From an uncultured Rhodobacterales bacterium (GTDB lineage: Bacteria; Pseudomonadota; Alphaproteobacteria; Rhodobacterales; Rhodobacteraceae), in NCBI GenBank assembly GCA_965366835.1, contig CBDUGF010000004.1, forward strand, positions 1,273 through 65,272: DNA of 64,000 bases. The letters are read 5' to 3'. Below the pieces are notes generated by a model. It made no database searches, was not told the DNA's origin, and saw only the letters and a list, made by a program, of their open reading frames with translations. Made by a program: the position numbers and the translations under genes. This document shows positions 15,399 through 64,000 of the stretch, in pieces (within the stretch, counting starts at the first letter, position 1; each line of letters opens with the position of its first letter).

Positions 15399-15407
15399 CC
15401 ACACCGC

Positions 15408-24550: not shown

Positions 24551-24607
24551 TTAATGTCGCTTTCAGGCTGACATGGCACCAGATTCGCGGATTTCACAGG
24601 CGGGCCG

Positions 24608-34737: not shown

Positions 34738-34744
34738 GGTTTTC

Positions 34745-37284: not shown

Positions 37285-37337
37285 CGGGCGTGTGACGGTA
37301 AGAAGGGTTAAGAAAACCTTGAAATGCGTCGCGTGAG

Positions 37338-37456: not shown

Positions 37457-37461
37457 GCGTT

Positions 37462-45402: not shown

Positions 45403-46706
45403 TGGATGCGCGCCGGATCATCGCCCATCTGCGCGACGGGATAACCCCGACGCGCGAAGAATTGAGATGGTTTGCCAATGGGTTGGCGGATCGCTCGGTC
45501 TCGGATGCGCAGGCCGGGGCGTTTGCCATGGCGGCGCTGTTGAAGGGCTTGGGCGAAGAGGGGCGCGTGGCGCTGACGCTGGCGATGCGCGACAGCGGCG
45601 ATGTGCTGACATGGGATCTCGACAAGCCGGTGCTCGACAAGCATTCGACCGGCGGGGTGGGCGATTGTGTTTCGCTTGTGCTGGCCCCGGCGCTGGCGGT
45701 GTGCGGCGCCTATGTGCCGATGATTTCGGGGCGCGGGCTGGGCCATACCGGCGGCACGCTCGACAAGATCGAGGCGATTGCCGGCCTGCGCACCGATCTC
45801 GACGAGGCGCAATTCCGCAGGGTGGTGAAGGAGGCGGGGGCGGCGATTGTTTCGGCCTCGGCCCATATCGCGCCCGCCGACAAGCGGCTCTATGCGATCC
45901 GTGATGTGACCGCGACGGTGGAGAGCCTCGATCTGATCACCGCCTCGATCCTGTCGAAGAAGCTGGCGGCGGGGCTGGAGGGGTTGGTGCTGGATGTGAA
46001 GCTGGGTTCTGGCGCGTTCATGAAGACGCCCGAGAAGGCGCGCACGCTGGCTGGGTCGCTGGTCAGCACCGCCAATGCCGCCGGCTGCCCGACCACGGCG
46101 ATCATTTCGGACATGAACCAGCCGCTGGTGCCTTCCTTAGGCAATGCGCTGGAGGTGGCGGAGGTGATGCGGGTCTTGACCGGGGGCAAGGGCGGGGCGA
46201 TGGCCGAGCTTTCGGCGGCGCTGGGCGGCGTGGTTCTGGCCAATGCCGGGGTCTGCGACGATGTGCAGGCGGGGGCCGATGCGATTGCCGAAAGCATCCG
46301 CGATGGCCGCGCGGCGGAGGCGTTTGGGCGGATGATCGCGGCGCAGGGCGGGCCGGTGCAATTCGTCGAGAGCTGGGCGCGGTTCCTGCCCGAGGCGACG
46401 GTGATCCGCGAGGTCGTGGCGCGCGAAGACGGCTATATCGCCGCCTATGACGGCGAGGCGCTGGGGCTTTGCGTGGTCGGGCTTGGCGGCGGGCGGCAGG
46501 TGGAGGGCGATGTGATCGACCCGTCGGTCGGCCTGTCGGACCTGTTGCCGCTGGGCGCGAAGGTCGAAAAAGGCCAGCCGATCGCGCGGATCCATGCGGC
46601 GCGCGAGGATGCGGCGGCGCGGGCCGAGACGGAGCTGCGCGCGGCGCTGACGATCGGGCCGCGCAAGCCGGAAGTGCCGCCGCTCATTCACGAGAGGGTC
46701 GGGTGA
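45402..46706 (+). CDS. deoA: thymidine phosphorylase
   Basis: 434 aa with DKHSTGGVGD and SGRGLGHTGGTLDK motifs. Confidence 0.93.
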   Translation: MDARRIIAHLRDGITPTREELRWFANGLADRSVSDAQAGAFAMAALLKGLGEEGRVALTLAMRDSGDVLTWDLDKPVLDKHSTGGVGDCVSLVLAPALAVCGAYVPMISGRGLGHTGGTLDKIEAIAGLRTDLDEAQFRRVVKEAGAAIVSASAHIAPADKRLYAIRDVTATVESLDLITASILSKKLAAGLEGLVLDVKLGSGAFMKTPEKARTLAGSLVSTANAAGCPTTAIISDMNQPLVPSLGNALEVAEVMRVLTGGKGGAMAELSAALGGVVLANAGVCDDVQAGADAIAESIRDGRAAEAFGRMIAAQGGPVQFVESWARFLPEATVIREVVAREDGYIAAYDGEALGLCVVGLGGGRQVEGDVIDPSVGLSDLLPLGAKVEKGQPIARIHAAREDAAARAETELRAALTIGPRKPEVPPLIHERVG

Positions 46707-46820
46707 TGGGCGGGTTGGCGAAAGCTTTGAGAGCAGCGTCTGCCTGGGTAGGCGTTTTGGGGTGCCATGATGACGTGGTCGCCGCGGTTGCTGAAACGCG
46801 CGAACGCCGCAACCAATCGA

Positions 46821-46858
46821 AACTGCGAAAAAGCGCCTGCCGGGGGGCAGGCAGGCGC
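46821..46858 (-). terminator. terminator-like hairpin in the deoA-deoB spacer, with its U tract on the minus strand
   Basis: AGCGCCTGCC-N8-GGCAGGCGCT with a 10-bp stem. The minus strand is followed by TTTTTCGCAGTTTCG. The plus strand has no T tract. Confidence 0.4.
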
Positions 46859-46905
46859 TGCCCGGCGTTGCCGCCGCGCGGAGCATTTACTCAAGCATCG
46901 ACACC

Positions 46906-48111
46906 ATGACCCGCGCCTTCCTGATCGTGATGGATTCCGCCGGGATCGGCGGCGCGCCGGATGCGGACCGGTTTTTCAATGGCACCCTGCCCGATACCGG
47001 CGCCTGCACGCTGGGCCATATCGCGCAGACCTGCGCGGCCGGAAAGGCGGAAGAGGGCCGCAGCGGGCCGCTTGCCGTTCCAAATCTGGCAGCGCTGGGG
47101 CTGGGCGATGCGATCAGGCTGGCCAGCGGCGAGGAGACCGGCCTGCCCGGGGCCAGCACCGGACGTTGGGGCGCGGCGACGGAAATCTCAAAGGGCAAGG
47201 ACACGCCTTCGGGCCATTGGGAAATCGCCGGGGTTCCGGTGCCGTGGGACTGGCATTTCTTCCCCGATGAAGACCCGGCGATTCCCGATGATCTGCTGGC
47301 GCTGATCCGCGACGCGGCGGGCACCAAGGGCACGCTGGGCAATGCCCATGCCTCGGGCACCGAAGTGATCGAGCGGCTGGGGCAGAAGAGCATCGAGACC
47401 GGCTGGCCCATCGTCTATACTTCGGCCGACAGCGTGGTGCAGATCGCCGCCCACGAGGAGCATTTCGGGCGCGACCGGCTGATCGCGCTGTGCAAGGCCG
47501 TCGCCCCGGCCTTTCATGCGCTGCGGGTCGGGCGGGTAATCGCGCGGCCTTTCATCGGGCAAGAGGGCGATTTCCAGCGCACGCCGCATCGCAAGGATTT
47601 CGCCATTGCGCCCCCTGCCCCGACCTTGCTGGACTGGGCGCAGGGCGCCGGGCGCGCCACCCATGCCATCGGCAAGATCGGCGATATCTTCTCGATGCGC
47701 GGGATCGACACATATGCAAAAGGTACGGATGCCGATCTGATGGCCGATCTCGCCCGGCAGGTGGAGCAGGCCGAAGACGGCAGCCTGACCTTCGCCAATT
47801 TCGTCGAGTTCGATACGCAATACGGCCATCGGCGCGATGTGTCGGGCTATGCGCGCGCGCTGGAATGGTTCGACGGCGAGTTGGGCAAATTGCTGCCCCG
47901 GCTCAGGGATGGCGACATGCTGCTGATCACCGCCGATCACGGCAACGATCCGACATGGGACGGCACCGATCATACCCGCGAACGGGTGCCTGTTTTGATT
48001 GCTGGCAAGGGGGCGGGCAGCGTCGGGCTGGTGGGGTTTGCCGATATCGGCGCCAGCGTGGCGGATCATCTGGGACTGTCTGAGCGCGGCGCGGGGAAAA
48101 GCTTCTTATGA
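46906..48111 (+). CDS. deoB: phosphopentomutase
   Basis: 401 aa with MDSAGIGGAPDA, SGHWE and a C-terminal TADHGNDPT metal site. Confidence 0.93.
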   Translation: MTRAFLIVMDSAGIGGAPDADRFFNGTLPDTGACTLGHIAQTCAAGKAEEGRSGPLAVPNLAALGLGDAIRLASGEETGLPGASTGRWGAATEISKGKDTPSGHWEIAGVPVPWDWHFFPDEDPAIPDDLLALIRDAAGTKGTLGNAHASGTEVIERLGQKSIETGWPIVYTSADSVVQIAAHEEHFGRDRLIALCKAVAPAFHALRVGRVIARPFIGQEGDFQRTPHRKDFAIAPPAPTLLDWAQGAGRATHAIGKIGDIFSMRGIDTYAKGTDADLMADLARQVEQAEDGSLTFANFVEFDTQYGHRRDVSGYARALEWFDGELGKLLPRLRDGDMLLITADHGNDPTWDGTDHTRERVPVLIAGKGAGSVGLVGFADIGASVADHLGLSERGAGKSFL

Positions 48112-49094
48112 GTTGGCGAGACTTTCCCAAGATCGAGTTGCATCTGCATCTGGAAGGCGCCGCGCCGCCCGCATTCATTCGCGGGCTGGCGCAGGAAAAG
48201 AGCATTGATATCTCGCGCATCTTTGCCGAGGACGGCTCTTATGCGTTTCGCGATTTCGGCCATTTCCTGCAAGTCTACGAGGCCGCGACCAGCGTATTGA
48301 CCGGCCCGCGCGATTACGGCCGGCTGACCGCGGCGATCCTGGAGGAACTGGCCAGCCATGGCGTGATCTATGCAGAAGCCTTCCTGTCGCCCGATTTCTG
48401 CGGTGGCGGCGATGTATCGGCATGGCGCGATTATCTGGGCGAGATCGAGGATGCGGCGGCGCGGGCGGAGAAAATCCATGGCATCATCCTCAAGGGCATC
48501 ATCACCAATATCCGCCATTTCGGCCCTGAGGCGGCGCGGCCCATCGCCATCTGTGCCGCCGAGACGGCGGGCGATTTCATTCGCGGCTATGGCATGGGCG
48601 GCGACGAGAGCGTCGGCAAGCAGGGCGATTACGTCTGGGCCTTCGATTGCGCCCGCGAGGCCGGCTTGCGCCTGACCACCCATGCCGGGGAATGGGGCGG
48701 GGCGGAGAGCGTGCGCCAGGCGCTGGATGATCTCAAGGTCGAGCGGATCGGCCATGGCATCGGTGCCGCCACCGATCCGGCGCTGGTCGAGCGGCTGGTC
48801 GAGGATAGCATCACGCTGGAGGTCTGCCCGGGCTCGAACGTGGCGCTGGGAATTTTCCCGTCTTTCGCGGCGCACCCTCTGGCAAAGCTGCGCGAGGCCG
48901 GGGTAAAGGTGTGTGTAAGCACCGACGATCCGCCGTTCTTTCACACCTCGATGACGCGGGAATACGAGGAGCTGGCCCGCGCCTATGGCTGGGGCGCGGC
49001 GGAATTTGGCGAATTGAACGACACCGCGCTGGCGGCGGCCTTTTGCAGCGAGCCGACGCGCGCGCACCTGAAAGAAAAGCTGGAGGCCACATGA
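48108..49094 (+). CDS. add: adenosine deaminase
   Basis: 328 aa with [14 protein letters not shown] and the STDDP motif. Confidence 0.92.
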
Positions 49095-51335: not shown

Positions 51336-51761
51336 TCAGACCAGCCCGCGCCATTTCAGCACCAGGATCACCAGTGCCACGATGGCCAGGAGATTGAATG
51401 CCAGGCTGCCCATGAGGCCGAGCCAGAAATCCTTGCGCCTTTCCTTCGGGTCGATCGCGTCGAGATGGCGGGCGATCCGGTCATGCGCCGCCTTTACCGC
51501 CGCCGCATCGACCCGTTTGCGCAGCTTTGGGTGACTGTCGAACTCGACCGCCTTGTCGATCAGCGCGACGTCTTGCGCCAGCGGTTTCGACACGCCGCCC
51601 GCGGCCCGGCGCAGGCGTTTGAGCAGCGGCCCGCGGCGCTGGCCAAAGCCTTTTTGCAGCCGGGTGTCGATATCGGCGGCGAGCCGGGAAATGTCGGTCG
51701 ATTCGCTCATGAGCGCCACGATATCGGCTTTCTGAGGGGGGCGAAACGCACCGATTGCCAT
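51336..51761 (-). CDS. hypothetical membrane-anchored protein (C-terminal TM)
   Basis: 141-aa ORF; the ATG follows GGGGAG. C-terminal hydrophobic segment FWLGLMGSLAFNLLAIVALVILVL. Confidence 0.55.
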   Translation of the reverse strand: MAIGAFRPPQKADIVALMSESTDISRLAADIDTRLQKGFGQRRGPLLKRLRRAAGGVSKPLAQDVALIDKAVEFDSHPKLRKRVDAAAVKAAHDRIARHLDAIDPKERRKDFWLGLMGSLAFNLLAIVALVILVLKWRGLV

Positions 51762-51799
51762 CGCTTGCTCCCCGGCGCCGGGGCCGCTATTGCTCGGGC

Positions 51800-52561
51800 A
51801 TGCTCAACACCCTGCATCAAGGCACCGACGCCGCCACCGCCCCGCTGCTGATCGCCCATGGCCTGTTCGGCTCGGCACGCAATTGGGGCGTGATCGCAAA
51901 ACGGCTGTCGAACGCGCGCCATGTGATCGCGGCGGATATGCGCAACCACGGCGCCTCGCCCTGGTTTGACAGCCACAGCTATGGTGACATGGCCGCCGAT
52001 CTGGCCGAGGTGATCGCGGCTGAGGGCGGAGCGGCGGATGTGCTGGGCCATTCGATGGGCGGCAAGGCGGCGATGATGCTGGCACTTGAGCATCCAGAGC
52101 TTGTGAACCGGCTGATCGTGGCCGATATCGCGCCGGTGCCCTACAGCCACCAGCAGCGCCACAATATCGAGGCGATGCGGGCGCTCGATCTGTCTGGGAT
52201 CGAAAACCGCTCCGACGCGGGCGCGCAGCTTGCGCCCCGGCTGGAGGATCCGGCGCTGGCCGACTTCTTCCTGCAATCGCTCGATGTGGCGGGCAAGCGC
52301 TGGCGGCTCAATCTCGATGTGCTGGACCGCGAAATGGAAAAGATCCTGTCATTCCCGGACGTCGCGGGCTCGTTCGACAAGCCGGTGCTGTTCCTGTCAG
52401 GCGCCGAGAGCCCCTATGTCAGCCGCGACCAGCGCCCGCAGATCAAGGCGCTGTTTCCGCAGGCGCGGTTCATGAAGATACCCGGCGCCGGCCATTGGCT
52501 GCATGCCGAAAAGCCGCGCGAATTCGAAGCCGCTGTGCGCGGCTGGCTCGATCACGCCTGA
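51800..52561 (+). CDS. alpha/beta hydrolase (YbfF-like esterase)
   Basis: Nucleophile elbow GHSMGG and HG oxyanion motif (LLIAHGLFGS). About 253 aa. Confidence 0.82.
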   Translation: MLNTLHQGTDAATAPLLIAHGLFGSARNWGVIAKRLSNARHVIAADMRNHGASPWFDSHSYGDMAADLAEVIAAEGGAADVLGHSMGGKAAMMLALEHPELVNRLIVADIAPVPYSHQQRHNIEAMRALDLSGIENRSDAGAQLAPRLEDPALADFFLQSLDVAGKRWRLNLDVLDREMEKILSFPDVAGSFDKPVLFLSGAESPYVSRDQRPQIKALFPQARFMKIPGAGHWLHAEKPREFEAAVRGWLDHA

Positions 52562-52891: not shown

Positions 52892-53317
52892 TCAGACCAG
52901 CTTGTTGAGAAGTGCGAGGAAACTGGCGCGTTCGGCTTTGCTCAGCGGCGCCAATGTCTCGTCGCTGATCCGGCGGCCGACCTCACGCATCCGCGCCAGC
53001 AGGGCGGCGCCTTCATCGGTGAGCGAAATCAGCATGCGCCGCTTGTCGTCGGGGTCAGGCACCACCCGGGTCAGCCCCTTCGATCTCAGCCGGTCGGCGA
53101 CGCCCTTGATCGTGGCCACGTCCATCGCCGCCAGCCGCCCGAGCCGGTTCTGCGAGACGCTGCCCTCCTCGCCGATCCGCACCAGCGCGGCGAATTGCTG
53201 GGCCGTCAGCCCGTCGAGCGTATGGGTCTGGAAGATCGCCGCATGGCGCTGGTTGGCCAGCCTGAGCAAGTATCCGACCTGGCTGTCGAGGGTATAGGGC
53301 GCGCCGGCCATGCTCAA
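52892..53317 (-). CDS. MarR family transcriptional regulator
   Basis: 141 aa with a MarR wHTH core (LTAQQFAALVRIGEEGSVSQNRLGRLAAMDVATIKGVADRLRSKGL). Its start overlaps the upstream ABC ATPase stop (ATGA). Confidence 0.88.
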   Translation of the reverse strand: MSMAGAPYTLDSQVGYLLRLANQRHAAIFQTHTLDGLTAQQFAALVRIGEEGSVSQNRLGRLAAMDVATIKGVADRLRSKGLTRVVPDPDDKRRMLISLTDEGAALLARMREVGRRISDETLAPLSKAERASFLALLNKLV

Positions 53318-54015
53318 ACCGCCAGGTATTGCTGGCTGATCGCCGGGTTGGCATCAAGCTTGGCAAAGCTGCCCTCGAAGCGCAGCGTGCCTTTCTCGAT
53401 GATGATCGCCCGGTCGGAAACGGCGCGCGCGAAATGCAGGTTCTGTTCGCTGAGCAACACCGACAGCCCCTCGCTCTTCAGCTCGCCGATCACCCGCGCC
53501 ATCTGTTCCACGATCACCGGCGCGATGCCCTCGGAGGGTTCGTCGAGCAGCACGGCCTTGGGATTGCCCATCAGCGTGCGCGCGATGCTCAGCATCTGCT
53601 GTTCGCCGCCCGACAGCTGCTTGCCGAGATTGCCGCGCCGCTCGGCCAGGTTGGGAAACAGCTCGAAAAGGTGTTCCCGGGTCCATTCCGGGGCGCCCTC
53701 GCGGCGCGGACGACGACCCACTTCGAGGTTTTCCTCGACCGTCAGATCGGGGAAGATCCGCCGCTCCTCGGGGACATAGCCGATCCCGGCACGGCAGATC
53801 ATATGCGGCGCCAGCTTCATCAATGAGCGTCCGTCATAGCGGATCTCGCCCGCCTTGGCGGCGACCAGCCCCATGATGCATTTCATCGTCGTGGTCTTGC
53901 CGGCACCGTTGCGCCCGAGCAGCGCCACCACCTCCTGCCCGGCCAGTTCGAGGCTCATCCCGTTCAGGATCTGGGCGCGGCCATAACGCGCGGTCAGGTT
54001 GTTGACCTCAAGCAT
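53314..54015 (-). CDS. branched-chain amino acid-type ABC transporter ATP-binding protein (LivF family)
   Basis: Walker A GRNGAGKTT, signature LSGGEQQML and Walker B VLLDEPSEG. Start at ATG 54015, which overlaps the livG-like stop by 8 nt. Confidence 0.9.
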   Translation of the reverse strand: MLEVNNLTARYGRAQILNGMSLELAGQEVVALLGRNGAGKTTTMKCIMGLVAAKAGEIRYDGRSLMKLAPHMICRAGIGYVPEERRIFPDLTVEENLEVGRRPRREGAPEWTREHLFELFPNLAERRGNLGKQLSGGEQQMLSIARTLMGNPKAVLLDEPSEGIAPVIVEQMARVIGELKSEGLSVLLSEQNLHFARAVSDRAIIIEKGTLRFEGSFAKLDANPAISQQYLAV

Positions 54016-54781
54016 CGGCACCCTCCGCCCTGGCAAACAGCGTGCCGCCGCCGAGATAGACCTCCTGCACCAGCGCGTTTTCGCGGATTTCCGGCCCCGT
54101 GCCTTCAGCGATCAGCCTGCCGCGATTGAGCACCAGGATGCGATGGGCATGGGCAAAGACCACGTCCATGTCATGCTCGGTGAAAAGCACGCTGACGCCG
54201 CGCTCGGCGACGATCCCGGCGGTCAGTTCCATCAGCGCGATCCGCTCGGAGGGCGCCATGCCCGCCGTCGGTTCGTCCATCAGCAACAGCGTCGGCTCAT
54301 GCGCGAGCGCGATCGCCAGTTCCAGCCGCTTGAGATCGCCGTAGGCCAGCTCCGAGCTGGCGCGCCCGCCCTGTGCGGCCATCGACACCAGCTCGAGCAG
54401 CGCATCGGCCTCGGCGACGTAGGCCCGCGTCGCGCGCGAGATCAGGTCGAACATCCGCCGGTGGTGCGACAGGAGCGCCATCTGCACATTCTCGCGCACC
54501 GTCATCGACCCGAACGTGCGGGTGATCTGAAACGTCCGCCCCACCCCCATGCGCCAGATCCGGCGCGGCCGCTTGCCGATCAGCTCGGCGCCTTCCAGCC
54601 TGACCGAGCCGCGATCCGGCCTGAGATAGCCGTTGAGCATGTTGAAACAGGTGGTCTTGCCCGCCCCGTTCGGCCCGATCAGCGCCAGGAACTCGCCCTT
54701 GCCGAGATCAAACGACACATCCGCGACCGCATCGAGGCCGCCAAAGCTCTTGCTGAGGCCGCGCACTTCGAGAACATTCAT
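54008..54781 (-). CDS. branched-chain amino acid-type ABC transporter ATP-binding protein (LivG family)
   Basis: [15 protein letters not shown], Walker [10 protein letters not shown] and LMDEPTAGM. These are the C-terminal 258 codons of a longer shadow-extended ORF. Confidence 0.9.
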
Positions 54782-56637
54782 GCCTTGCCCTCCTCGTCGC
54801 GGCGCAGCCCCAGCGCGCGCAACAATCGCTCGACCCCGCCGGCCACACCATCGGGTGCGATCAGCACCACCACCAGAATGATGGCGCCGAAGATGAAGCG
54901 CCAGTAATCCAGCCGGCTGACCCAGTCCTCGATCATCACGAAGGCGACGGCGCCGAAGATCGGCCCGGCCAGCGCATGGATGCCGCCCAACAGCACCATG
55001 ATCAGCCCGTCGACCGATTGCCCGATGCCCAGCGCATCGGGAAAGACCGAGCCCTTGGAGAAGGCGAACACCACCCCGGCCAGCCCGGCCAGCGTTCCGG
55101 CCAGGGTGAAACCCATCCATTGATGCAGCTTCACGTTCATGCCGATCGCCTCGGCGCGCACATCGCTGTCGCGGATGCCGCGCAGGCCATAGCCGAAGGG
55201 CGAATGCGCCACCCGGCGCAGGAACAGGATGCCGCCGATGCAGAGCCCGAAGGCGATGTAGAAGAACACCAGGTCGGAGCTCGCCCATGCGGCGGGCCAG
55301 ACACCGAGGATGCCATCGTCGCCGCCGGTGAACTGCTGCCACTGGAAGGTGACGCCCCAGAGGATCTGTGCCGCCGCCAGCGTCAGCATGGCGAGGTAGA
55401 CGCCGGAAAGGCGCACGCAGAACCAGCCGAAGAACAGCGCCGCCAGCCCGGCGGCCAGCGGCCCCATCAGCATCGCGGGCAGCATCGAAAAGCCGAAGAA
55501 CTTCACCGACATCGCCGCGCCATAGGCGCCGACGCCGAAATAGGCCGCGTGGCCGAACGACACCATGCCGCCCAGCCCCATCATGAAATGCAGCGACACG
55601 GCAAACAAGGTCGCCACCATGACATCGACCAGGAGGATGGTGGAAAACTCGCTGACCACCGCCGGGCTGAGCGCCAGCGCGAAGATCAGCGCCATCAGCA
55701 CCATCGCGGCGCGCGGGCTGAGCAGGCGCAGCGGCGCTTCCGGGTCGGCGGGCTGGCCATGCTCGCTGCCCGGTTTGCCGAAAAGGCCGTGCGGGCGCAG
55801 GATCAGCACCACCGCCATGACGATGAACGGCAGCACGATCGAGATCTGCGGGAAGATCAGGATGGCGAAGGCATTGAGCACCGAGATCAGCACCGCGGCG
55901 ACAAAGGCGCCCGAGACCGAGCCCATGCCGCCGATCACCACCACCACGAAGGCCTCGCCGATCACCGAAAGGTCCATCTGCAGGCTCACTGCCTCGCGCG
56001 GGATTTGCAGCGCCCCGCCGAGGCCTGCCAGCGCCGCGCCGAGCATGAATACGCCCGAGAAAAGCCACGCCTGGTTGACGCCGAGTGCATCGACCATGTC
56101 GCGATCCTGGGTCGCGGCGCGCACCAGGATGCCCCAGCGGGTGCGATGGAACAGCAGCCAGATCGCCCCCAGAACCAGCGGGCCGATGAAGATCAGTGCC
56201 AGGTCGTATTCCGGGATCGGCTCGCCGAGGATGCGCACCGCGCGGTCGAGCCCCGGCGCGCGTGGGCCCAAGAGATCCTCGGCTCCCCAGATCGCCAGCG
56301 TGGCGTCCTGAAAGATCAGCACCACGCCGAAGGTGGCGACCAGCTGGAACAGTTCGGGCGCGTGATAGATGCGGCGCAGGATGGTGATCTCGATGATCAG
56401 CCCGACCACCCCGACGATCAGCGCCGCCGCCAGCACCGAACCCCAGAAGCCAAGGATTCCACCCTGCAAATTGGTGACCAGCGTGTAGGCGATATAGGCG
56501 CCGACCATGTAGAACGAACCATGCGCGAAGTTGACGATCCGGGTGACGCCGAAGATGATCGACAGCCCGCAGGCGATCAGAAACAGAGACGAGGCGTTCG
56601 CCAGCCCGGTCAGCAACTGCGCGATGTAGAAACCCAT
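54778..56637 (-). CDS. fused branched-chain amino acid-type ABC permease (LivH-like plus LivM-like halves)
   Basis: About 619 aa starting [30 protein letters not shown] (LivH-like). The second half is LivM-like (..[17 protein letters not shown]..). Confidence 0.85.
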
Positions 56638-56728
56638 CTTGCCCGTCCCCTTTTCAACTCGCGTTCGCGCGCGCTTTTTCGCAAGTGTTTCGGGGCAGCC
56701 TGCGCTGCCCCGATGATGTTTCCGGCGA

Positions 56729-57943
56729 TTATTCCGCCGGGCGCATCTTGGCGGCTTCTTCTTCGCTGGGCAGATAGGCCGCGCCATCGGCATAGGCCCA
56801 GTCCACCATCATTCCCATGCCGTCTTTCTTGGCCGTGAGCCCGACATAGGCGCCCATGGTCGATTGATGATCGGCGGCGCGGAACATGAACGGACCGGTC
56901 GGCGAGGACGGCACTTCGAGCCCCTCCATCGCCTGGCGCAGGGCTTCCGTCTCGGTCGAGCCGGCCTTTTCCAGCGCCGCCTTGATCGCCAGCACCGAGT
57001 TGTAGCCGACGATCGAGCCGGTTTTCGGGATCTCGCCCCAGCGCGCTTCATAGGCGGTCAGGAAGGCCTTGTGCTCGGGCGTGTCGATCTGGGCCGCGGG
57101 ATAGCCGGTGACGATCCAGCCTTCGGGGGTTTCCTCGCCCAGCGGGTCGAGATATTCCGGCTCGCCCGAGAGCAGCGACACCACGGTGCGATCCTCGAAC
57201 AGGAAGCGCAAGCTGCCTTCGCGTACGAATTTCGCCAGATCGCCGCCGAAGGTGACGTTGTAGATCGCGTCGGGCTTGACCTGTTCCAGCGCGCGCACAG
57301 TGCTGCCGGCGTCGATCTTGAACACCGGCGGCCATTGCTCGCCCACCCATTCGACATCCGGCTGCAGCTTGGTCAGCTCGGATTTGAACGCGGCCACGGC
57401 GTCCTTGCCATAGGCATAGTTGGGCGCCACGGTGGCCCATTTCTTCTTGCCCAGCTTGGCCGCCTGTTCGGCCAGCATCGCCGCCTGCATATGGGTCGAT
57501 GGGCGCAAACGGTAGGTATACTTGTTGCCCTTGGACCAGACCAGCGCATCCGAGAGCGGCTCGGAGGCGAGGAACAGCACCTCTTTCTGCTTGGCGAAAT
57601 CCGCCACGGCGAGGCCGATATTGCTGAGGAAGGTGCCGAACAGCATCACCGCGCCGTCCTTGGAGATCAGCTCTTCGGCAATGCGGATCGCGGTGGCCGG
57701 ATCGCCGGTGTCGTCGCGGCTGATCACTTCGAGCATCCTGCCGTCAATGCCCCCGGCGGCGTTGATTTCCTCGACCGCCAGCATCCAGCCTTTCTTGTAG
57801 GGCTCGGTAAAGGCCGGCAGGCGGGTATAGGAATTGATCTCGCCAAGCACGATCTTGTCCTGTGCCGAGGCGGCACCGGGCAGCAGGCTCAGCATCGGCA
57901 AGGCGGCCAGCGCGCCCAATATCTTGCGTCGCAAAAGTTTCAT
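56729..57943 (-). CDS. ABC transporter substrate-binding protein (LivK/type I periplasmic receptor family)
   Basis: 404 aa with signal peptide ...LSLLPGAASA and an ANF-receptor-like body (IVLGEINSYT...). Confidence 0.85.
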   Translation of the reverse strand: MKLLRRKILGALAALPMLSLLPGAASAQDKIVLGEINSYTRLPAFTEPYKKGWMLAVEEINAAGGIDGRMLEVISRDDTGDPATAIRIAEELISKDGAVMLFGTFLSNIGLAVADFAKQKEVLFLASEPLSDALVWSKGNKYTYRLRPSTHMQAAMLAEQAAKLGKKKWATVAPNYAYGKDAVAAFKSELTKLQPDVEWVGEQWPPVFKIDAGSTVRALEQVKPDAIYNVTFGGDLAKFVREGSLRFLFEDRTVVSLLSGEPEYLDPLGEETPEGWIVTGYPAAQIDTPEHKAFLTAYEARWGEIPKTGSIVGYNSVLAIKAALEKAGSTETEALRQAMEGLEVPSSPTGPFMFRAADHQSTMGAYVGLTAKKDGMGMMVDWAYADGAAYLPSEEEAAKMRPAE

Positions 57944-58048
57944 GTCACGTCTCCCTGTGGTCTTGTTGGTTTGAGTTGTTGTTTTGATCCTGGTCAGGCG
58001 ATCGTCAGCCAGCCATCGCTGTTCGGGCCTGTCGCGCGCGAAAACCCG

Positions 58049-58633
58049 CTATCGCAGCCCGTCCTTGCCCTCCGCGTCCTTTGCCTCGAGCCCGCCGACG
58101 CGCGGCAAGGGCCGCCCGCTATCGGTAACCGCGACGGCAACCATGATCTCGTTGGCGCGCGGCGCGTCGTTCAGGCGCACCTCGATGCCGTCGAAATGGC
58201 TGCGCACATAGGCCGCATCCTTGTGGCCCAAAGGCACGTCGAGCACTTGGCCGGGGCTGCCCATCTTCTTGGAGGACGGCACCAGTGCGGCGCCCTTTTC
58301 GACCGCCTTCCTGAGCGGCGCGCCGAGCTTGGGATGCAGGATCGCGGCGGCATGTTCAAGCTCGCCGTTTTCCCCCACCATGGCGGATTTGCCATAGGAT
58401 TCAGCGTCTTCCGGCGTTATGTCAAGCGCCAGCACGCAACGTTCCCCGAGCAGCCCGCCCAGTTCGGCGCCGATCTCCATCAGCTCGCCGAGGTCTTCGA
58501 CGTAGCGCCCGGCGAACGGGTTCTCGATCACCGCCACGGCCACAGCCTTGCGCGTGGGCGGCATGATCTCGCGGCCCATCTCGCTCAGCGTCTCTTCCAC
58601 CGTGACGGTGAGTTTCCTGATCTTCGCTTTCAT
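58049..58633 (-). CDS. amino acid synthesis family protein (PF06684/DUF1185-like), copy B
   Basis: 194 aa with motifs AVAVIENPFAGRY, GELEHAA, VRSHFDGIEV and C-terminal GKDGLR, all shared with the adjacent paralogue. Family name recalled from memory. Confidence 0.65.
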   Translation of the reverse strand: MKAKIRKLTVTVEETLSEMGREIMPPTRKAVAVAVIENPFAGRYVEDLGELMEIGAELGGLLGERCVLALDITPEDAESYGKSAMVGENGELEHAAAILHPKLGAPLRKAVEKGAALVPSSKKMGSPGQVLDVPLGHKDAAYVRSHFDGIEVRLNDAPRANEIMVAVAVTDSGRPLPRVGGLEAKDAEGKDGLR

Positions 58634-59217
58634 CTCAGCCCATCCTCTCCCTTGATATCGCCGGCGTCCAGCCCGCCGGCGCGATTGTGCACCCGTGCGC
58701 CATTGGTCATCACCAGGATCAGCGCCATTTCATCGGCCCGAGGTGCATCGTTGCAGCCGACTTCGATACTGTCGAAATGCGAGCGCACGTATGAGGCGGT
58801 AATATGCGTGACCGGCACGTCGAGCCGCGCGCCGACCCCGCCGACCTTCTTGGTCGAGGGCACGATGGCCTTGGAACGCTCGGCGCCCAGAAGCTCGCGC
58901 ATGGCATAGCCGCCCGGCGCGTGCCAGAGCGCACCATGTTCGATCTCGCCGGCGCTGCCGATGATCGCGCCCTTGCCATAGCCTTCGACATTTTCGGCCC
59001 CGCCCATCATCTCGATCAGACGTGTGGCCAGCTGGATGCCGAGCGGTTTCAGCTCCTCCATGAAGGGCTGGATCTCGGGCGCGTATTGCCCGGCGAACGG
59101 GTTGGCGATCACCGCCATGGCCCAGGCCCGGCGATAGGGGGATTTGGCCGGCACACCGCCCTCGTGCCAGATTTCCTCCAGGCTCTCGATGGTCTTTCTG
59201 ATTTTGAGGTCAGGCAT
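58630..59217 (-). CDS. amino acid synthesis family protein (PF06684/DUF1185-like), copy A
   Basis: About 195 aa with AMAVIANPFAGQY, GEIEHGA, VRSHFDSIEV and GEDGLR. The second ATG (59217) has better SD spacing (GAAGGA, 8 nt). Confidence 0.65.
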   Translation of the reverse strand: MPDLKIRKTIESLEEIWHEGGVPAKSPYRRAWAMAVIANPFAGQYAPEIQPFMEELKPLGIQLATRLIEMMGGAENVEGYGKGAIIGSAGEIEHGALWHAPGGYAMRELLGAERSKAIVPSTKKVGGVGARLDVPVTHITASYVRSHFDSIEVGCNDAPRADEMALILVMTNGARVHNRAGGLDAGDIKGEDGLR

Positions 59218-60067
59218 GTTCGACATCCTTCAATTCTGCTCGTCCGATGGGTCCGACAAGGCGGTTTTGCCCGCGCAAGAACAGCGCCGCCGCATGGATC
59301 AGCCCGGCCTGTCGCATCTCGTTTGCCGCTGCGACTCCACGCGCCAGGGCCTGCGTAATGTCGGCATCGCTGAGCGGCCCGACGCCAGCGACAACCAGGC
59401 GCTCGCCGAGATCGCTTTCGGGGCGCAATTGGCTGGCCGGCCTGCGGGCAATCGCGCCATGGCCGGGCAGATCGACCGCATTGGCGATCAGCGTCGCCGC
59501 CGCATCCGCCGATGCCGCGTCGCGCGCCAGAACCGTCACGCTGTCGGCGATGCCAAAGGACAGGCTGCGCCCGCCCTGCCCGCTGGTGGCGACGCCGCCG
59601 ATGCCGTCGCCGGCGCCGATCTCGACCGCGCCCAAGCCCGCGCCATCCAGCCCGGCCATGGCGAGGCGAAACGTCTCTCCGCGGGCGAGATGCAGGGCGA
59701 TATCGCCGCCATTGTTGACATAGGCGCGGCGCAGCCCGCCCGCCGCGACCATGGCCGCCAGCACATGATCGGCCACCGCGCCAGCGACTGCCGCCATCGG
59801 GGTGACAAAGCCTTGATGTCGCGCCACCGCCCGCACCATCCGTTTCGCGACCGGACCCTTCACCGCGTAGGGTGGGGTTTCACCCCACCCCCCGGCGCGC
59901 CGCAATAGCTCAAGCTCCTCGACCAGCCCTTCAAGGACGCCGTCAAACGCGGCTTCCGCCGCCGCAAACGCCTGTTTGCGCGCACCGTCTGCCCCGATCA
60001 CCAGGTCGATCGGGCCATGCTGCAAGTGCAGTCGCTCACCCGGGAGGAAGGCGCTGGAAGAACTCAT
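59210..60067 (-). CDS. UPF0280 family protein (ApbE-like fold suspected)
   Basis: 285 aa with N-terminus LHLQHGPIDLVIGADG. Family assignment is from memory of this conserved neighbourhood. Start and stop both overlap the neighbouring genes. Confidence 0.55.
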   Translation of the reverse strand: MSSSSAFLPGERLHLQHGPIDLVIGADGARKQAFAAAEAAFDGVLEGLVEELELLRRAGGWGETPPYAVKGPVAKRMVRAVARHQGFVTPMAAVAGAVADHVLAAMVAAGGLRRAYVNNGGDIALHLARGETFRLAMAGLDGAGLGAVEIGAGDGIGGVATSGQGGRSLSFGIADSVTVLARDAASADAAATLIANAVDLPGHGAIARRPASQLRPESDLGERLVVAGVGPLSDADITQALARGVAAANEMRQAGLIHAAALFLRGQNRLVGPIGRAELKDVEHA

Positions 60068-61548
60068 TTCTCGCCCCAGCGGAAATGTCCGCGCGCATTG
60101 GGGTCGTGGCCCGCAGCACTGGGGCCGATCTTGCGGGTGGCGTCGCTGAGCACCGTCTCGACCGGGTGGATTTCCTTGATATGCCCGCCCAGAGCCGCGT
60201 AATCGCTGACCCGCATGGTGAATTCGATCGGCGCCACGATGGCAGGGGTGGGCACATAGCCGAAGGCGTTGGAGGGCATTTCCATTACGTCGGCCATCAC
60301 CGTGATGCCGCCGCCGGGCCAGACATAGGCCTCGGCGCCACCACAGCTGACCCGCGCCAGCGCCTCGCGCACCGAGCGGGTGAGGCGCACCGGGTTTTCC
60401 GTTACGCCGGCGCGCAAGCTGCCCCCGGCGCCGCCCATGAACAGCACCGAACAGATCGAAGGCTCGCAGTTCTCGGCGATGCGCTCGGCGCTGGCTTTGA
60501 CAGCTTCGGGCGCTTCGGCGGCGCGCGGCACCAGATCGGCATCAAGCTCGAAATAAGCCCATTGCTCGCCCGTGGTGGAGACCATGAAGAGGCGCAGGCC
60601 GGGCCATGCCACGTCCGGTTTCCAATCGCCCAGGATGGTCAGCGGATCGTCGATATCGGTGCCGCCCCACCCGAGCCCCGGCTCGGCGACCTGAAAGTAG
60701 CGCCCGGGGGTCGAGCGGCGGCCCTTGATCCTGATGCCGGTGGGCGGCACGCCCAGCACCTGCCCGGCCTGATGCTCGCTGAGCACCCCGGTGATATGGT
60801 CATCGACCACCACCACCTCGTCGACGATGTCGCGCCATTGCTTGGCGAACATGCCGATGGCGGCCGAGCCGCAGCCGACCCGCATCAGCTTTTCCGGCAC
60901 GCCGTTGACGATGGGCGGCTGGCCGGCCTGCACCACCACTTCCGTGGCATGGCCCTCCTCGCCGATCACCATGGTGACGGGTTCGCGGTTGCACAGCTGC
61001 ATCAGCGCGTCGCAGGTCACCCGGCCTTCCTTCTTGGAGCCGCCTGTAAGGTGTTCGACGCCGCCGAGCGAGAGCATTTTCGAGCCGTATTCGGACGTCA
61101 TCACATGGCCGATCGGCTCGCCATCGACGCGCACCACGTCGCGTTCGTTGCCGAGATGGCGGTCGGTGTCGATCTTCACCTTGGCACCGCAATAGGAAAA
61201 GATGCCCTCGGTCACGACCGTGACCATGTCGACGCCATCGACTTCCTGGCTGACGATGAAGGGGGCGGGCTTGTAATCGGGATAGGTGGTGCCGGCGCCG
61301 ACCGCGGTGACGAAGCGGCGCTGGCCCTTGACGATATCTCCGTCCCAATCGCCGGCTTCGTCGGTGGCGAGGAACGGCACCAGCTTCTCGGAACTGATCT
61401 CGATCACCGTGAGCGGGTCGAGCCGCACCAATTCGCCGCCGTGATTGGCATATCGGTCGCAGGCGCCGGGTTTGCCTTCGGCAATGTAGCACATCACCGG
61501 GCAGGCATCGCAGCGGATCTTCTCGACGCTCACTCTCTCACGCGCCAT
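60064..61548 (-). CDS. 6-hydroxynicotinate reductase-like Fe-S protein
   Basis: 494 aa with an N-terminal Cys cluster CDACPVMCYIAEGKPGACDRY. Resembles proteins annotated as 6-hydroxynicotinate reductase (Hnr); the substrate here is unproven. Confidence 0.6.
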   Translation of the reverse strand: MARERVSVEKIRCDACPVMCYIAEGKPGACDRYANHGGELVRLDPLTVIEISSEKLVPFLATDEAGDWDGDIVKGQRRFVTAVGAGTTYPDYKPAPFIVSQEVDGVDMVTVVTEGIFSYCGAKVKIDTDRHLGNERDVVRVDGEPIGHVMTSEYGSKMLSLGGVEHLTGGSKKEGRVTCDALMQLCNREPVTMVIGEEGHATEVVVQAGQPPIVNGVPEKLMRVGCGSAAIGMFAKQWRDIVDEVVVVDDHITGVLSEHQAGQVLGVPPTGIRIKGRRSTPGRYFQVAEPGLGWGGTDIDDPLTILGDWKPDVAWPGLRLFMVSTTGEQWAYFELDADLVPRAAEAPEAVKASAERIAENCEPSICSVLFMGGAGGSLRAGVTENPVRLTRSVREALARVSCGGAEAYVWPGGGITVMADVMEMPSNAFGYVPTPAIVAPIEFTMRVSDYAALGGHIKEIHPVETVLSDATRKIGPSAAGHDPNARGHFRWGEK

Positions 61549-61563
61549 GGTTTCCTCCCGTGA

Positions 61564-61679
61564 CGATTTTGGACGCCAAAATCGGTTCGAAATCCGACGC
61601 GGATTTCGATTGCCGCGCCGTATCGGCCAGGCACCTGTTTTCCGCGTCGGAAAACGGACTGAATTCCGCTTCGGAATTC
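61564..61679. repeat. four-hairpin composite intergenic element, copy C (inverted relative to copy B)
   Basis: CGATTTTGG-ACG-CCAAAATCG, TCGAAATCCG-ACG-CGGATTTCGA, a 27-nt spacer, GTTTTCCG-CGT-CGGAAAAC and GAATTCCG-CTT-CGGAATTC. The reverse complement reproduces the stem order of copy B. Confidence 0.85.
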
Positions 61680-61682
61680 GCT

Positions 61683-64000
61683 CTATCCATCCGCCATCTC
61701 CTTCAGCGCCGCTTTCAAACGCGACGGCGTGACCGGCAGGTGGTGCATCGCAACCCCTGTGGCATCGCGGATCGCGTTCAGGATTGCCGGAGCGGTGGGG
61801 ATCAGCACATGTTCGCCCAGCCCCTTGGCGCCGTAAGGCCCGTGCGCGTCCGGTTCCTCGATGATCAGGGTCTCGACGGGCGGCATGTCGCCCACCGTCG
61901 GGATCAGGTAGTCATGCAGGTTCTCGGTGCGCCCGGGCAGGTATTCCTCCATCAGCGCCATGCCGAGGCCCTGGGCGATGCCGCCTTCGACCTGGCCTTC
62001 GACCAGCAGCGGGTTGATCGCCTTGCCGAGATCATGCGCGGCGACGAATTTCAGCGGCTTTACGGTGCCCAGCGCGGTGTCGACCTCGAGCACGCAGAGA
62101 TGCGCGGCATAGCCAAACTGCGCGTAAGGCTCGCCCTGACCGTTGGCATCCAGCGGCTTTGTCGGCGGATCATAGGTCTCCTCGGCGCGCAGCACATAGC
62201 CTTCGGCGTCGGGCTCCAGCGCCGAGAGGTCGATCTCGTGCACGCGCGTACCATCGCGCACACGAAGCAGATTGGCGGCCAGTTCGATCTCGGCTGCGTC
62301 GCCCGCATTGGCGCGTTGCAGGATTTCTGCGCGCAGCGCCTCGCCGGTCAGCCGCGCGGCATTGCCGGTCACGAAGGTCTGGCGCGAGGCCGAGGTCTTG
62401 CCGGCGTCGGGCGTCACGTCGGTATCGCCGCCGACCAGCGCCAGCGCGCTGACAGGCACGCCGAGCGCGGTGGCGAAGATCTGCGCGATCACCGTGTTGG
62501 CGCCCTGGCCGATATCTGCCGCACCCTGGTGCAGCACGATTTGCCCGTCACGCCGCAGCCCGGCCTTGATCGTCGAGGGGTTGGGCAGCGAGGTGTTGCC
62601 GCAGCCATACCAGCCCGCCGCAATGCCGACACCGCGCCGGACCGTACCGCCCCGGCGGTTGACCTTCTCCGCCGTGGCGCGGGCACTGTCCCAGGCGGGC
62701 TTGAGCGCCTCTAGGCAGGCCTTGATGCCGACGCCCTGTTCGAACACCTGGCCGCAGACCGTCGGCACGCCATTTTCGAGCGCATTCAGGATGCGAAACT
62801 CCAGCCGGTCGATGCCGAGCCTGTCGGCCAGCACGTCAAACAGGCTTTCCTGCGCCACCGCCGCCTGCGGTACGCCAAAGCCGCGAAACGCGCCGGAGGG
62901 CGGGCAATGGGTGTGAATGCCCTTGGCCTCGGCGCGGTAATCGGCCACCGCATAAGGCCCGGAGGCATGTACCGGCACCCGGTTGGCCACCGTTGGCCCC
63001 CAGCTGGCATAGGCGCCGGTGTTGAACAGGCCATCGAAGCGAAAGCCGCAAATCCGGCCCTCGGCATCGGCGCCGATCCTGACGGTCATCTCCGCCGGGT
63101 GGCGCTTGGTGGTCGATTGCATCGATTCGCGGCGCTCGTAGGTGAGCCGCACCGGCCGTCCGGTTTTCAGCGCCGCAATCGCCAGATAGGGCTGCACCGA
63201 GACATCGAGCTTGGCGCCGAAACCGCCGCCGGTCGCGGTGGGCACGACACGGATGCGGGCGCGGTCCATGCCCAGAACCTGCTCGAGCGTGTCGAGATCC
63301 ATCACCGGCGCCTGGGTGCAGGCATGCACTTCGACCCGGCCGTTCACGATCTCGGCAAAGCCGGCCTCGGGCTCGATATAGGCGTGTTCGACGAAGCTGG
63401 TGGTGAACCGGCCCTCGGCGATCACGGCGGCGCGGGCCAGCGCGCCATCGGCGTCGCCGTGGGCGACGAAGCCACCGCACATCACGTTGCCTGCGCGCGC
63501 TTCGTGCAGGAGCGCAGCACCTTCGGCCATGGCAGAAGCCATGTCCTGCGTGTCGGGCAGCGGCTCCCAGCTTACCGGGAAGTCTGCCGGATCGAAGCGG
63601 GCCATCGCCCTGGCCTCGCCGACGACGGCGGCCACCGCTTCGCCGCGAAAGCGGGCTTCGCAGACAGCGAAAACCGGCTGGTCGTGAAAGCCGGGGATCA
63701 CGCCGTAGAGATTGGCGCCCGGGACGTCGCCTGCGGTGAGAACCGCTTCGATTCCAGGGCGCGCCGCGAAGGCTTCAAGATCGCCGAAGGCAAAGCGCGC
63801 CCGGGCGTGCGGGCTGCGGATGATCCGGATCACCAAGGCGTCGGGCGGGGCGATATCATCGCCGAACCGCTCGGTGCCGCGCACCTTGGGGCCGCCATCG
63901 AGCTTGGCGATCGCCGCCCCGGCATGGCCGTTTGCGTCGGCGTCAACGCCCGGGCCGCGATCCATCACCGCGTCGATGATCTTGACATAGCCGGTGCAGC
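61683..64000 (-). CDS. xanthine dehydrogenase/aldehyde oxidase family molybdopterin-binding protein, probably fused to an N-terminal [2Fe-2S] domain (5' end outside window)
   Basis: a/b-hammerhead KVRGTERFGDDI and Mo-site TATGGGFGAKLD. The frame stays open to the window edge, and the upstream codons read CTGYVKIIDAV, a [2Fe-2S] small-subunit motif. Confidence 0.85.
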   Translation of the reverse strand, partial: CTGYVKIIDAVMDRGPGVDADANGHAGAAIAKLDGGPKVRGTERFGDDIAPPDALVIRIIRSPHARARFAFGDLEAFAARPGIEAVLTAGDVPGANLYGVIPGFHDQPVFAVCEARFRGEAVAAVVGEARAMARFDPADFPVSWEPLPDTQDMASAMAEGAALLHEARAGNVMCGGFVAHGDADGALARAAVIAEGRFTTSFVEHAYIEPEAGFAEIVNGRVEVHACTQAPVMDLDTLEQVLGMDRARIRVVPTATGGGFGAKLDVSVQPYLAIAALKTGRPVRLTYERRESMQSTTKRHPAEMTVRIGADAEGRICGFRFDGLFNTGAYASWGPTVANRVPVHASGPYAVADYRAEAKGIHTHCPPSGAFRGFGVPQAAVAQESLFDVLADRLGIDRLEFRILNALENGVPTVCGQVFEQGVGIKACLEALKPAWDSARATAEKVNRRGGTVRRGVGIAAGWYGCGNTSLPNPSTIKAGLRRDGQIVLHQGAADIGQGANTVIAQIFATALGVPVSALALVGGDTDVTPDAGKTSASRQTFVTGNAARLTGEALRAEILQRANAGDAAEIELAANLLRVRDGTRVHEIDLSALEPDAEGYVLRAEETYDPPTKPLDANGQGEPYAQFGYAAHLCVLEVDTALGTVKPLKFVAAHDLGKAINPLLVEGQVEGGIAQGLGMALMEEYLPGRTENLHDYLIPTVGDMPPVETLIIEEPDAHGPYGAKGLGEHVLIPTAPAILNAIRDATGVAMHHLPVTPSRLKAALKEMADG

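Follow-up and report, generated by a model that had tools for sequence, protein, structure and literature searches.

Organisation of the gene cluster

The 64-kb stretch of DNA analysed here (the window) stems from an uncultured Rhodobacterales bacterium and carries on its minus strand, at 52892-64000, a gene cluster that combines a molybdenum (Mo) hydroxylase and an orthologue of 6-hydroxynicotinate reductase (Hnr) with two protein families of unknown function, UPF0280 and PF06684, a Liv-type ABC transporter and a MarR-family regulator. Protein families were assigned by matches to Pfam and NCBIfam profiles. Read in the direction of transcription, the first gene inside the window (61683-64000) encodes a fused [2Fe-2S]/Mo subunit of the xanthine dehydrogenase (XDH) family with Ald_Xan_dh_C, MoCoBD_1 and MoCoBD_2 domains, which is cut by the window end such that 771 of its approximately 912 residues lie inside. 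It is followed by a 134-nt spacer (61549-61682) containing one copy of a REP-like repeat, and then by the hnr gene (60064-61548), whose 494-residue product has relatives named 6-hydroxynicotinate reductase by NCBI. The next gene (59210-60067) encodes the UPF0280 / COG2122 protein (NCBIfam NF003322, 349 bits against a cut-off of 290) and precedes two paralogous genes of the PF06684 family (DUF1185, 'AA_synth'), of which paralogue A has 198 residues (58630-59226; Pfam, 226 bits) and paralogue B 194 residues (58049-58633; Pfam, 242 bits).

The distal half of the cluster encodes the transporter and the regulator. A LivK-like (Liv/HAAT-type) periplasmic binding protein (56729-57943; Peripla_BP_6, 229 bits) is followed by a fused LivH/LivM-type permease of about 620 residues (54778-56640; PF02653 in two stretches, 243 bits), the Marimonas orthologue of which has 617 residues, and by a LivG-type ATPase of 257 residues (54008-54781; PF00005 and PF12399, BCA_ABC_TP_C). 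The reading frame of the LivF-type ATPase (53314-54036; PF00005, 111 bits) likely has its true start at 54015, which yields a protein of 233 residues and matches the orthologue lengths in relatives. The MarR-family regulator (52892-53317; PF01047, 37 bits against a cut-off of 24.6, and PF12802) is encoded by the last gene of the operon.

The sequence past position 64000 could be followed on L082, a 7.2-kb metagenome contig of a near-identical strain which reaches approximately 3 kb beyond the window end and whose Hnr is 100% identical to that of the window, while the Mo proteins, compared by eye, show two residue differences. The full-length hydroxylase subunit on this contig has 912 residues with a Fer2/Fer2_2/Mo architecture, and the residues CTGYVKIIDAV with which the Mo reading frame meets the window end are the tail of its in-frame [2Fe-2S] domain. 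L082 carries the gene of a 275-residue flavin adenine dinucleotide (FAD) subunit (FAD_binding_5 and CO_deh_flav_C) ahead of the Mo gene, and the operon therefore consists of eleven genes with the FAD subunit first, starting about 2.4 kb past the window end. The FAD subunit gene is preceded by 313 bp of intergenic DNA, and further upstream come the gene of an AsnC/Lrp regulator and trxB. The junctions within the window comprise six overlaps of 4-17 nt (with the LivF start at 54015) and three gaps of 88, 105 and 134 nt, a spacing which would fit co-transcription as one or two transcripts.

A preliminary description of the window, made from the sequence without database searches, had listed ten minus-strand genes, and all ten were found in the order given there. 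Profile searches, which it had advised, assigned families to every product except the Hnr-like protein. Its XDH-family Mo protein with an in-frame [2Fe-2S] domain agrees with the tail seen in the window and with the whole protein on L082, and the FAD subunit gene that it had suggested looking for beyond position 64000 is present on that contig.

The reductase and the hydroxylase

The 494-residue Hnr gave no match in Pfam, NCBIfam or PDB sequence searches. Its closest named relatives are the Hnr proteins of Marimonas arenosa and Alisedimentitalea (88% identity) and of Aquicoccus (84-86%), which places the source within the Rhodobacterales, and it shares 43% identity over 459 residues with the Hnr encoded by a Firmicutes metagenome-assembled genome (MAG; locus L092). 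The latter is surrounded by genes for a four-subunit nicotinate-dehydrogenase-like set (FAD, 2Fe-2S and Mo split in two) and an amidohydrolase, as well as for a B12-binding mutase, PrpF, MutL and an ICL/PEP-mutase-type lyase, a neighbourhood which we take to be the canonical fermentative nic cluster of Eubacterium barkeri. An exhaustive profile-free search places the protein in a family of 1264 clusters at 50% identity (E <= 0.001), many of which are fragments. The full-length distant members occur in two forms, with or without an N-terminal 2x[4Fe-4S] ferredoxin domain, and the window protein belongs to the form without it; the four cysteines C13, C16, C20 and C30 (Cys4 motif) are invariant in all forms. 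A G-A-G-T-T loop at residues 84-88 of Hnr is conserved as well. Two representatives of approximately 970-980 residues bear extra N-terminal sequence, and several distant ones lie on contigs too short for their gene context to tell anything. The identity to the Hnr of an anaerobic-type cluster, the named relatives and the invariant Cys4 motif together make the window protein an Hnr orthologue, as the preliminary description had supposed. A comparable level of conservation (42% identity) has been reported between the Hnr of the Bradyrhizobiaceae strain SG-6C and that of E. barkeri (PMC3511419). The AlphaFold (AF2) model of the window Hnr (pLDDT 84, pTM 0.81) found no significant structural neighbour in the PDB.

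By architecture and similarity the hydroxylase is assigned to the XDH-family enzymes with 2Fe-2S and FAD modules. The chains of E. barkeri nicotinate dehydrogenase match the fused Mo/Fe-S protein with 250 (3HRD_A), 209 (3HRD_B) and 110 bits (3HRD_D) at the level of the PDB sequences, and together span the same residues as the best single PDB chain, a Desulfovibrio aldehyde oxidoreductase (385 bits). This chain comparison, though rough, supports nicotinate as the substrate of the hydroxylase. Among NCBIfam models the Mo subunit scores highest with pucD and XdhA, at 478 bits against a cut-off of 784; all equivalog scores lie far below their cut-offs, and the hydroxylase is therefore not a known xanthine dehydrogenase. 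The hydroxylase itself could be the electron donor of an Hnr that has no ferredoxin domain, in which case the conversion of nicotinate and water to 1,4,5,6-tetrahydro-6-oxonicotinate (THON) would be redox-neutral.

Conservation of the cluster in related genomes

A scan of a genome collection with a six-sequence Hnr alignment resulted in 80 retained loci, all of them proteobacterial or acidobacterial with no Firmicutes, to which exact-protein look-ups added four proteobacterial loci; the window proteins were mapped onto all 84. These loci span Rhodobacterales, Hyphomicrobiales, Rhodospirillales-like MAGs, Granulosicoccus (Gammaproteobacteria) and Acidobacteriota. The comparative neighbourhood analysis, likewise proposed in the preliminary description, reveals a core of Hnr, UPF0280 and PF06684 which recurs across the fetched loci, with PF06684 paralogue B present in 76 of the 84 and paralogue A in 64. 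An XDH-type hydroxylase with FAD and Fe-S/Mo subunits is found in 70 loci, an orthologue of the MarR regulator in 50, and an orthologous Liv transporter, as judged by its binding protein (at least 50% identity), in 33.

Ten loci contain an alternative, divergently encoded hydroxylase which consists of a 2Fe-2S subunit and a Mo/cytochrome c subunit of about 1180 residues. Hydroxylases of this type, with a Mo/cytochrome c subunit of 1182 residues, accompany the same core in Bradyrhizobium, Afipia, Rhodopseudomonas palustris, Xanthobacter and Rhizobium (L062, L059, L074, L072, L078, L055, L042, L039 and L037), and three such loci also carry a gene for nicotinate phosphoribosyltransferase.

In 19-21 of the 84 loci, which come from Rhodobacterales, Granulosicoccus and others, a Rieske VanA-like oxygenase and a FAD_binding_6 reductase are encoded beside the Liv genes (for instance L005 15282-17352, L004 13524-15545 and L032 14019-15089). 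This pair, which is absent from the window, is a candidate demethylase through which a precursor with an N- or O-methyl group, perhaps trigonelline, could enter the pathway.

Enamidase and the lower pathway

In the E. barkeri pathway the reduced ring is opened by an enamidase, and the preliminary description had noted that this enzyme, the 2-(hydroxymethyl)glutarate enzymes and the B12 mutase are missing from the window. Pfam scans of about 40 further open reading frames at 1-52800 indeed detected no amidohydrolase, B12 mutase or similar protein, and tblastn with enamidase orthologues found nothing in the 64-kb window. The genes of the fermentative lower pathway (2-(hydroxymethyl)glutarate dehydrogenase and dehydratase, 2-methyleneglutarate mutase, methylitaconate isomerase and dimethylmalate lyase) were found neither in the window nor in the proteobacterial loci, and the window is therefore not a member of the fermentative variant.

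In related genomes, 52 of the 84 loci encode an enamidase orthologue no more than 10 kb from hnr, as do 41 of the 58 loci that have full flanks of 9-10 kb. Most of these copies are 63-90% identical to one another, with two outliers at approximately 50%. The enamidase of Ruegeria pomeroyi, encoded at L090 14689-15855, matches that of E. barkeri (PDB 2VUN) from end to end (343 bits, E = 2e-101), and its gene is located just downstream of the same eleven-gene operon beside a family-III CoA transferase, a neighbour which fits the step from glutarate to glutaryl-CoA in the Azorhizobium route. In the remaining 17 of the 58 full-flank loci, which belong to varied lineages, the enamidase gene is more than 10 kb away from hnr, and loose linkage is therefore common. 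The preliminary description had placed UPF0280 and the PF06684 pair in the position of the enamidase. Since the enamidase occurs alongside both families in the 52 loci, it is not replaced by them; in the clade of the window its gene is probably just not adjacent to the cluster.

UPF0280

The UPF0280 protein bears the precomputed names 'AbpE_bact' (Pfam PF27030) and 'ApbE superfamily uncharacterized protein' (JGI). A Foldseek search of the PDB with its AF2 model (pLDDT 89) retrieved DVU1097 (2O34, the COG2122 structure; E = 1e-10), which is also reached by sequence profile (E = 4e-10), and otherwise only flavin transferases of the ApbE/Ftp/FmnB type (E 2e-5 to 1e-2, TM-score 0.35-0.50). The model thereby predicts an ApbE fold for UPF0280, common to DVU1097 and the ApbE, Ftp and FmnB FAD:protein flavin mononucleotide (FMN) transferases. 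Unlike the latter, UPF0280 is cytoplasmic and without a lipoprotein signal, and its identity to them is only 12-18%. The likeness of COG2122 to ApbE stops short of the flavin-binding region (PMC5764234), and for this reason UPF0280 is not filed here as an ApbE protein.

Of the 79 loci whose sequence continues downstream of hnr, 74 have UPF0280 as the very next gene. In the anaerobe-type clusters L083 and L084 the genes are ordered Mo subunit, enamidase, Hnr with the N-terminal ferredoxin domain (Fer4-Hnr) and UPF0280, and in the Firmicutes locus L092 UPF0280 again lies directly behind hnr, the contig ending inside it. UPF0280 thus adjoins hnr in anaerobe-type clusters as well, which implies that its association is with Hnr itself. 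The favoured role for UPF0280 is that it installs a covalently bound flavin or another cofactor on Hnr, and the main alternative is that it may act in sulfur or Fe-S maturation.

The PF06684 pair

Both PF06684 proteins match the model over its full length (positions 1-175 of 175). Paralogues A and B are 45% identical and fall into two separate orthologous groups, and the conserved motifs of the family comprise YGK, GE-EH, H102, PS-K, VRSHFD, DAP and a C-terminal DGLR. The orthologue of paralogue B in R. pomeroyi is SPO0826 (PDB 2QTP, 356 bits), whose structure has a chorismate-mutase-like fold and forms hexamers with a conserved histidine cluster; an involvement in the metabolism of amino acids was surmised for SPO0826 from its Liv neighbours alone (PMC2954203). 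In Thermodesulfobacteriota a single B-type copy of PF06684 follows Fer4-Hnr, in a cluster that also holds LivHMGF, an aldehyde dehydrogenase, a three-subunit hydroxylase and an enamidase.

Two other members of the family, TgnF of Acinetobacter baylyi and HcdD of Pseudomonas mandelii, are located in catabolic clusters for trigonelline and for coumarin (7-hydroxycoumarin), respectively, and TgnF stimulates the oxidation of succinate semialdehyde in trigonelline catabolism (PMC7913881). They share with the window the setting of heterocycle degradation via a ring-opened aldehyde-acid. TgnF and HcdD are encoded by single genes whereas the window carries two paralogues, and no catalytic activity has been defined for any PF06684 member. 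The TgnF reaction sequence would by analogy be the lower homologue of the conversion of 2-formylglutarate to glutarate semialdehyde. The Azorhizobium route of Kitts reportedly requires the ring-opened product to be decarboxylated before it is oxidised to glutarate. A possible explanation for the PF06684 pair is that A and B form a hetero-oligomer which processes the ring-opened product, by hydrolysis of the enamine and/or decarboxylation of 2-formylglutarate to glutarate semialdehyde.

Taken jointly, the two proposals would have UPF0280 install the flavin or another cofactor of Hnr while the PF06684 hetero-oligomer turns the enamine or 2-formylglutarate into glutarate semialdehyde and CO2. This combination is put forward tentatively, and we consider it somewhat doubtful that both halves hold. 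If they did, two domains of unknown function, UPF0280/COG2122 and PF06684, would receive their first biochemical roles, and the decarboxylation in the aerobic route of Azorhizobium, a step so far unassigned, would fall to the PF06684 pair in a manner analogous to TgnF.

A probable operon for nicotinate uptake and upper catabolism

The region is very probably the larger part of an eleven-gene operon for the uptake and upper catabolism of nicotinate by the reductive THON route. In such a scheme the Liv-type ABC transporter would import nicotinate, the XDH-family hydroxylase, composed of the FAD subunit and the fused 2Fe-2S/Mo subunit, would convert it to 6-hydroxynicotinate, and Hnr would reduce the ring to THON. 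An enamidase encoded elsewhere in the genome would then open the ring to give 2-formylglutarate and ammonia, and decarboxylation and oxidation would lead on to glutarate and glutaryl-CoA as in Azorhizobium. MarR is predicted to be the pathway repressor and would keep the operon silent until a pathway intermediate appears. The transporter has all the components of a HAAT importer, with a Peripla_BP_6 binding protein, two BPD_transp_2 domains and two ATPases, one of which bears the BCA C-terminal motif; against the NCBIfam models for urea and for branched-chain amino acids the binding protein stays below the cut-offs, and its predicted ligand is nicotinate or a close analogue. That a transporter of this family recurs in such clusters, Thermodesulfobacteriota included, means that its presence here is not anomalous.

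The preliminary description had interpreted the region as a hydroxylate-then-reduce route for an N-heteroaromatic acid with undescribed ring-opening chemistry. Its enzyme logic, borrowed from E. barkeri, holds in an aerobic alphaproteobacterium given the 43% identity of Hnr and the 3HRD matches of the hydroxylase. The remainder did not stand: the THON route has been described in Azorhizobium caulinodans by Kitts and its gene cluster was drawn in 2012 (PMC3511419), ring opening is accounted for by an enamidase orthologue (343 bits to 2VUN) near hnr in 52 of the 84 loci, and neither the replacement of the enamidase by UPF0280 and PF06684 nor the oddity of an amino-acid-type transporter is borne out by the related clusters.

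Several points weigh against a nicotinate operon as set out above. The enamidase is found neither in the 64-kb window nor in the approximately 3 kb beyond it on L082, nor within 10 kb on either side of the cluster in the three closest genomes, Marimonas (L001), Alisedimentitalea (L088) and Aquicoccus (L089), and a complete pathway in this organism is therefore assumed. The substrates of XDH-family enzymes and of Liv-type binding proteins are not readable from sequence, and the Mo subunit falls under every NCBIfam equivalog cut-off. Literature searches, including searches by locus tag, found no experiment on any Rhodobacterales (Roseobacter-group) cluster. The PF06684 genes show a closer linkage to hnr than to the enamidase gene, and a role as an accessory subunit of Hnr would therefore fit them as well. 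With regard to UPF0280, genetic work on the sister branch COG2122 found homocysteine synthesis in Desulfovibrio to depend on it, along with DUF39 and a NIL/ferredoxin protein, which points to sulfur handling. The role favoured for UPF0280 would build on the covalent flavin that E. barkeri Hnr reportedly carries (work by Alhapel and colleagues from 2006).

The same enzyme logic could serve another N-heteroaromatic acid or a precursor of nicotinate, such as another pyridine carboxylate or trigonelline (N-methylnicotinate), with a transporter specific for it. The low equivalog scores of the Mo subunit leave room for such a substrate, and the Rieske/FAD_binding_6 pair by the transporter genes of 19-21 of the 84 relatives, with its likeness to N- or O-demethylases, would suit it, as would the occurrence of PF06684 members in trigonelline and coumarin catabolic clusters. 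We nevertheless regard a different substrate as rather unlikely, since the window has no Rieske pair, and since the nicotinate enzymes of E. barkeri are, among proteins with a solved structure or a name, the best matches of Hnr, the enamidase and the hydroxylase (the latter with the three 3HRD chains taken together). Relatives moreover pair the same core with nicotinate phosphoribosyltransferase, and the cluster-bearing strain SG-6C grows on nicotinate. Nicotinate is accordingly what we infer to be the substrate of the operon.

Another reading is that, in the clade lacking a linked enamidase, the reduced ring is opened by the PF06684 pair itself, either alone or jointly with UPF0280; this would make the chemistry after THON new. 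An enzymatic function of this kind would be consistent with the conserved His, Lys, Ser and Asp cluster at the oligomer interface (PMC2954203, and the alignment made here) and with the coumarin cluster, which contains a PF06684 member and had no identified lactone hydrolase (PMC7913881), and no enamidase is within reach in the window, L082, L001, L088 or L089. The pair is nonetheless accompanied by an enamidase in 52 of the 84 loci and in Thermodesulfobacteriota too, and the distance of more than 10 kb in 17 of the 58 full-flank loci shows how loosely the enamidase gene is tied to the cluster, so that ring opening by PF06684 appears very unlikely. Older annotations would instead assign the cluster to amino-acid or purine metabolism, based on the Pfam names of the transporter and of PF06684, on the JCSG structure paper, which argued for amino-acid metabolism from the transporter neighbours of SPO0826 (PMC2954203), and on pucD and XdhA as the top NCBIfam matches of the Mo subunit. 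Such an assignment has hardly any probability: the pucD and XdhA scores are far below the cut-off (478 against 784 bits), the structure paper left the hnr and hydroxylase neighbours out of account, and the partners conserved across phyla are Hnr and the enamidase rather than amino-acid or purine enzymes.

Assignment to nicotinate catabolism concerns a widespread operon of marine Rhodobacterales, R. pomeroyi SPO0822-SPO0831 included, which is now labelled 'xanthine dehydrogenase / hypothetical / amino acid synthesis / branched-chain amino acid transporter', and it bears on the turnover of vitamin B3 and pyridines as seen in ocean metatranscriptomes. No new kind of pathway is revealed by the cluster. 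UPF0280 travels with Hnr in aerobes and anaerobes and PF06684 with the non-fermentative version of the pathway, and these patterns of co-occurrence make both families, for which crystal structures exist (2O34 for UPF0280; 2QTP and 3BYQ for PF06684), a matter of directly testable enzymology.

Other features of the window

The spacer between the hydroxylase gene and hnr consists of one copy of an intergenic repeat of about 125 nt, three copies of which are located in the window (61548-61685, 37335-37460 and 15285-15405). The repeat is composed of four short perfect hairpins with stems of 8-9 bp and loops of 3 nt, for example GAATTCCG-AAG-CGGAATTC and GTTTTCCG-ACG-CGGAAAAC, and has a spacer of approximately 28 nt in its middle. 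The copies have a mean identity of 77%, and compensatory changes preserve the stems. An Rfam search with the repeat returned no match, and it looks like a REP/BIME-type element. Marimonas, Alisedimentitalea and Aquicoccus lack the copy before hnr; there the hydroxylase gene and hnr overlap. A terminator or riboswitch in the 134-nt gap was considered and rejected because the gap is a copy of this dispersed hairpin repeat and has no Rfam match.

An alpha/beta hydrolase gene (51713-52561) was likewise rejected as a member of the cluster, as it recurs only in the window's own clade, where it is located beside a SPOR gene. According to the Pfam scans the rest of the window is devoted to housekeeping or unrelated metabolism, with genes for ATP synthase, ClpB, FtsH, Tol-Pal, SHMT, HMG-CoA reductase, acetyl-CoA synthetase and malic enzyme. 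Two paralogous proteins of approximately 820-860 residues (24572-27031 and 34613-37183) with DAO, FAO_M, GCV_T and GCV_T_C domains are of the dimethylglycine/sarcosine dehydrogenase type, and their genes flank DeoR regulators, a choline/ethanolamine-kinase-like gene and an ABC transporter; the region may be a methylated-amine catabolic island. A nucleoside salvage trio on the plus strand (45333-49094), which encodes a thymidine/pyrimidine-nucleoside phosphorylase, a phosphopentomutase-like metalloenzyme and an adenosine deaminase, lies at no great distance from the cluster and is unrelated to it.

Comparison with known nicotinate catabolic clusters

The cluster of the fermentative type, as known from E. 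barkeri and represented here by L092, is homologous to that of the window in its hydroxylase modules and in Hnr, and in both UPF0280 lies behind hnr. The anaerobe-type Hnr has the N-terminal 2x[4Fe-4S] domain that the window protein lacks, and the L092 hydroxylase has four subunits where the window encodes an FAD subunit and a fused 2Fe-2S/Mo subunit. L092 showed no PF06684 gene on its contig, which ends within UPF0280. The E. barkeri-type pathway goes on via 2-(hydroxymethyl)glutarate, the B12 mutase, methylitaconate isomerase and dimethylmalate lyase, none of which are encoded in the window.

The aerobic hydroxylate-then-reduce route via THON was worked out biochemically in A. caulinodans (Kitts 1989, 1992, cited in PMC3511419 and PMC9304392), and the occurrence of the THON route in both E. 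barkeri and A. caulinodans is summarised in PMC9304392. A nicotinate degradation cluster was drawn in 2012 for A. caulinodans (AZC_2790-2804), Bradyrhizobium japonicum (blr3818-3830), R. palustris HaA2 and strain SG-6C, the latter of which grows on nicotinate and on 6-hydroxynicotinate (PMC3511419). Like the window, this Azorhizobium/Bradyrhizobiaceae cluster belongs to aerobic alphaproteobacteria and to a pathway from nicotinate via 6-hydroxynicotinate to THON, and it comprises Hnr, a Liv-type ABC transporter proposed for nicotinate and MarR; its two conserved genes of unknown function are identified here as UPF0280 and PF06684. The loci of Bradyrhizobium, R. palustris, Afipia and Xanthobacter have the order Hnr-UPF0280-PF06684-LivKHMGF-MarR, the same as in the window. 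They differ in the hydroxylase, which in the Bradyrhizobiaceae type consists of the 2Fe-2S and the approximately 1180-residue Mo/cytochrome c subunits and is divergently encoded, whereas in the window the genes of the FAD and the fused 2Fe-2S/Mo subunit are co-directional with hnr. R. palustris, Xanthobacter and Afipia have an enamidase gene no further than 10 kb away; the window and its clade do not.

R. pomeroyi DSS-3 contains the same eleven genes in the same order as the window operon (SPO0822-SPO0831), with the enamidase and the family-III CoA transferase immediately downstream and a divergent LysR regulator upstream, whereas the window operon is flanked by the alpha/beta hydrolase and SPOR protein downstream and by AsnC/Lrp and trxB upstream. 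Both the pathway and the gene cluster are thus already in the literature, and what the window adds to them is a Rhodobacterales case in which an XDH-type hydroxylase is combined with a presumably unlinked enamidase.

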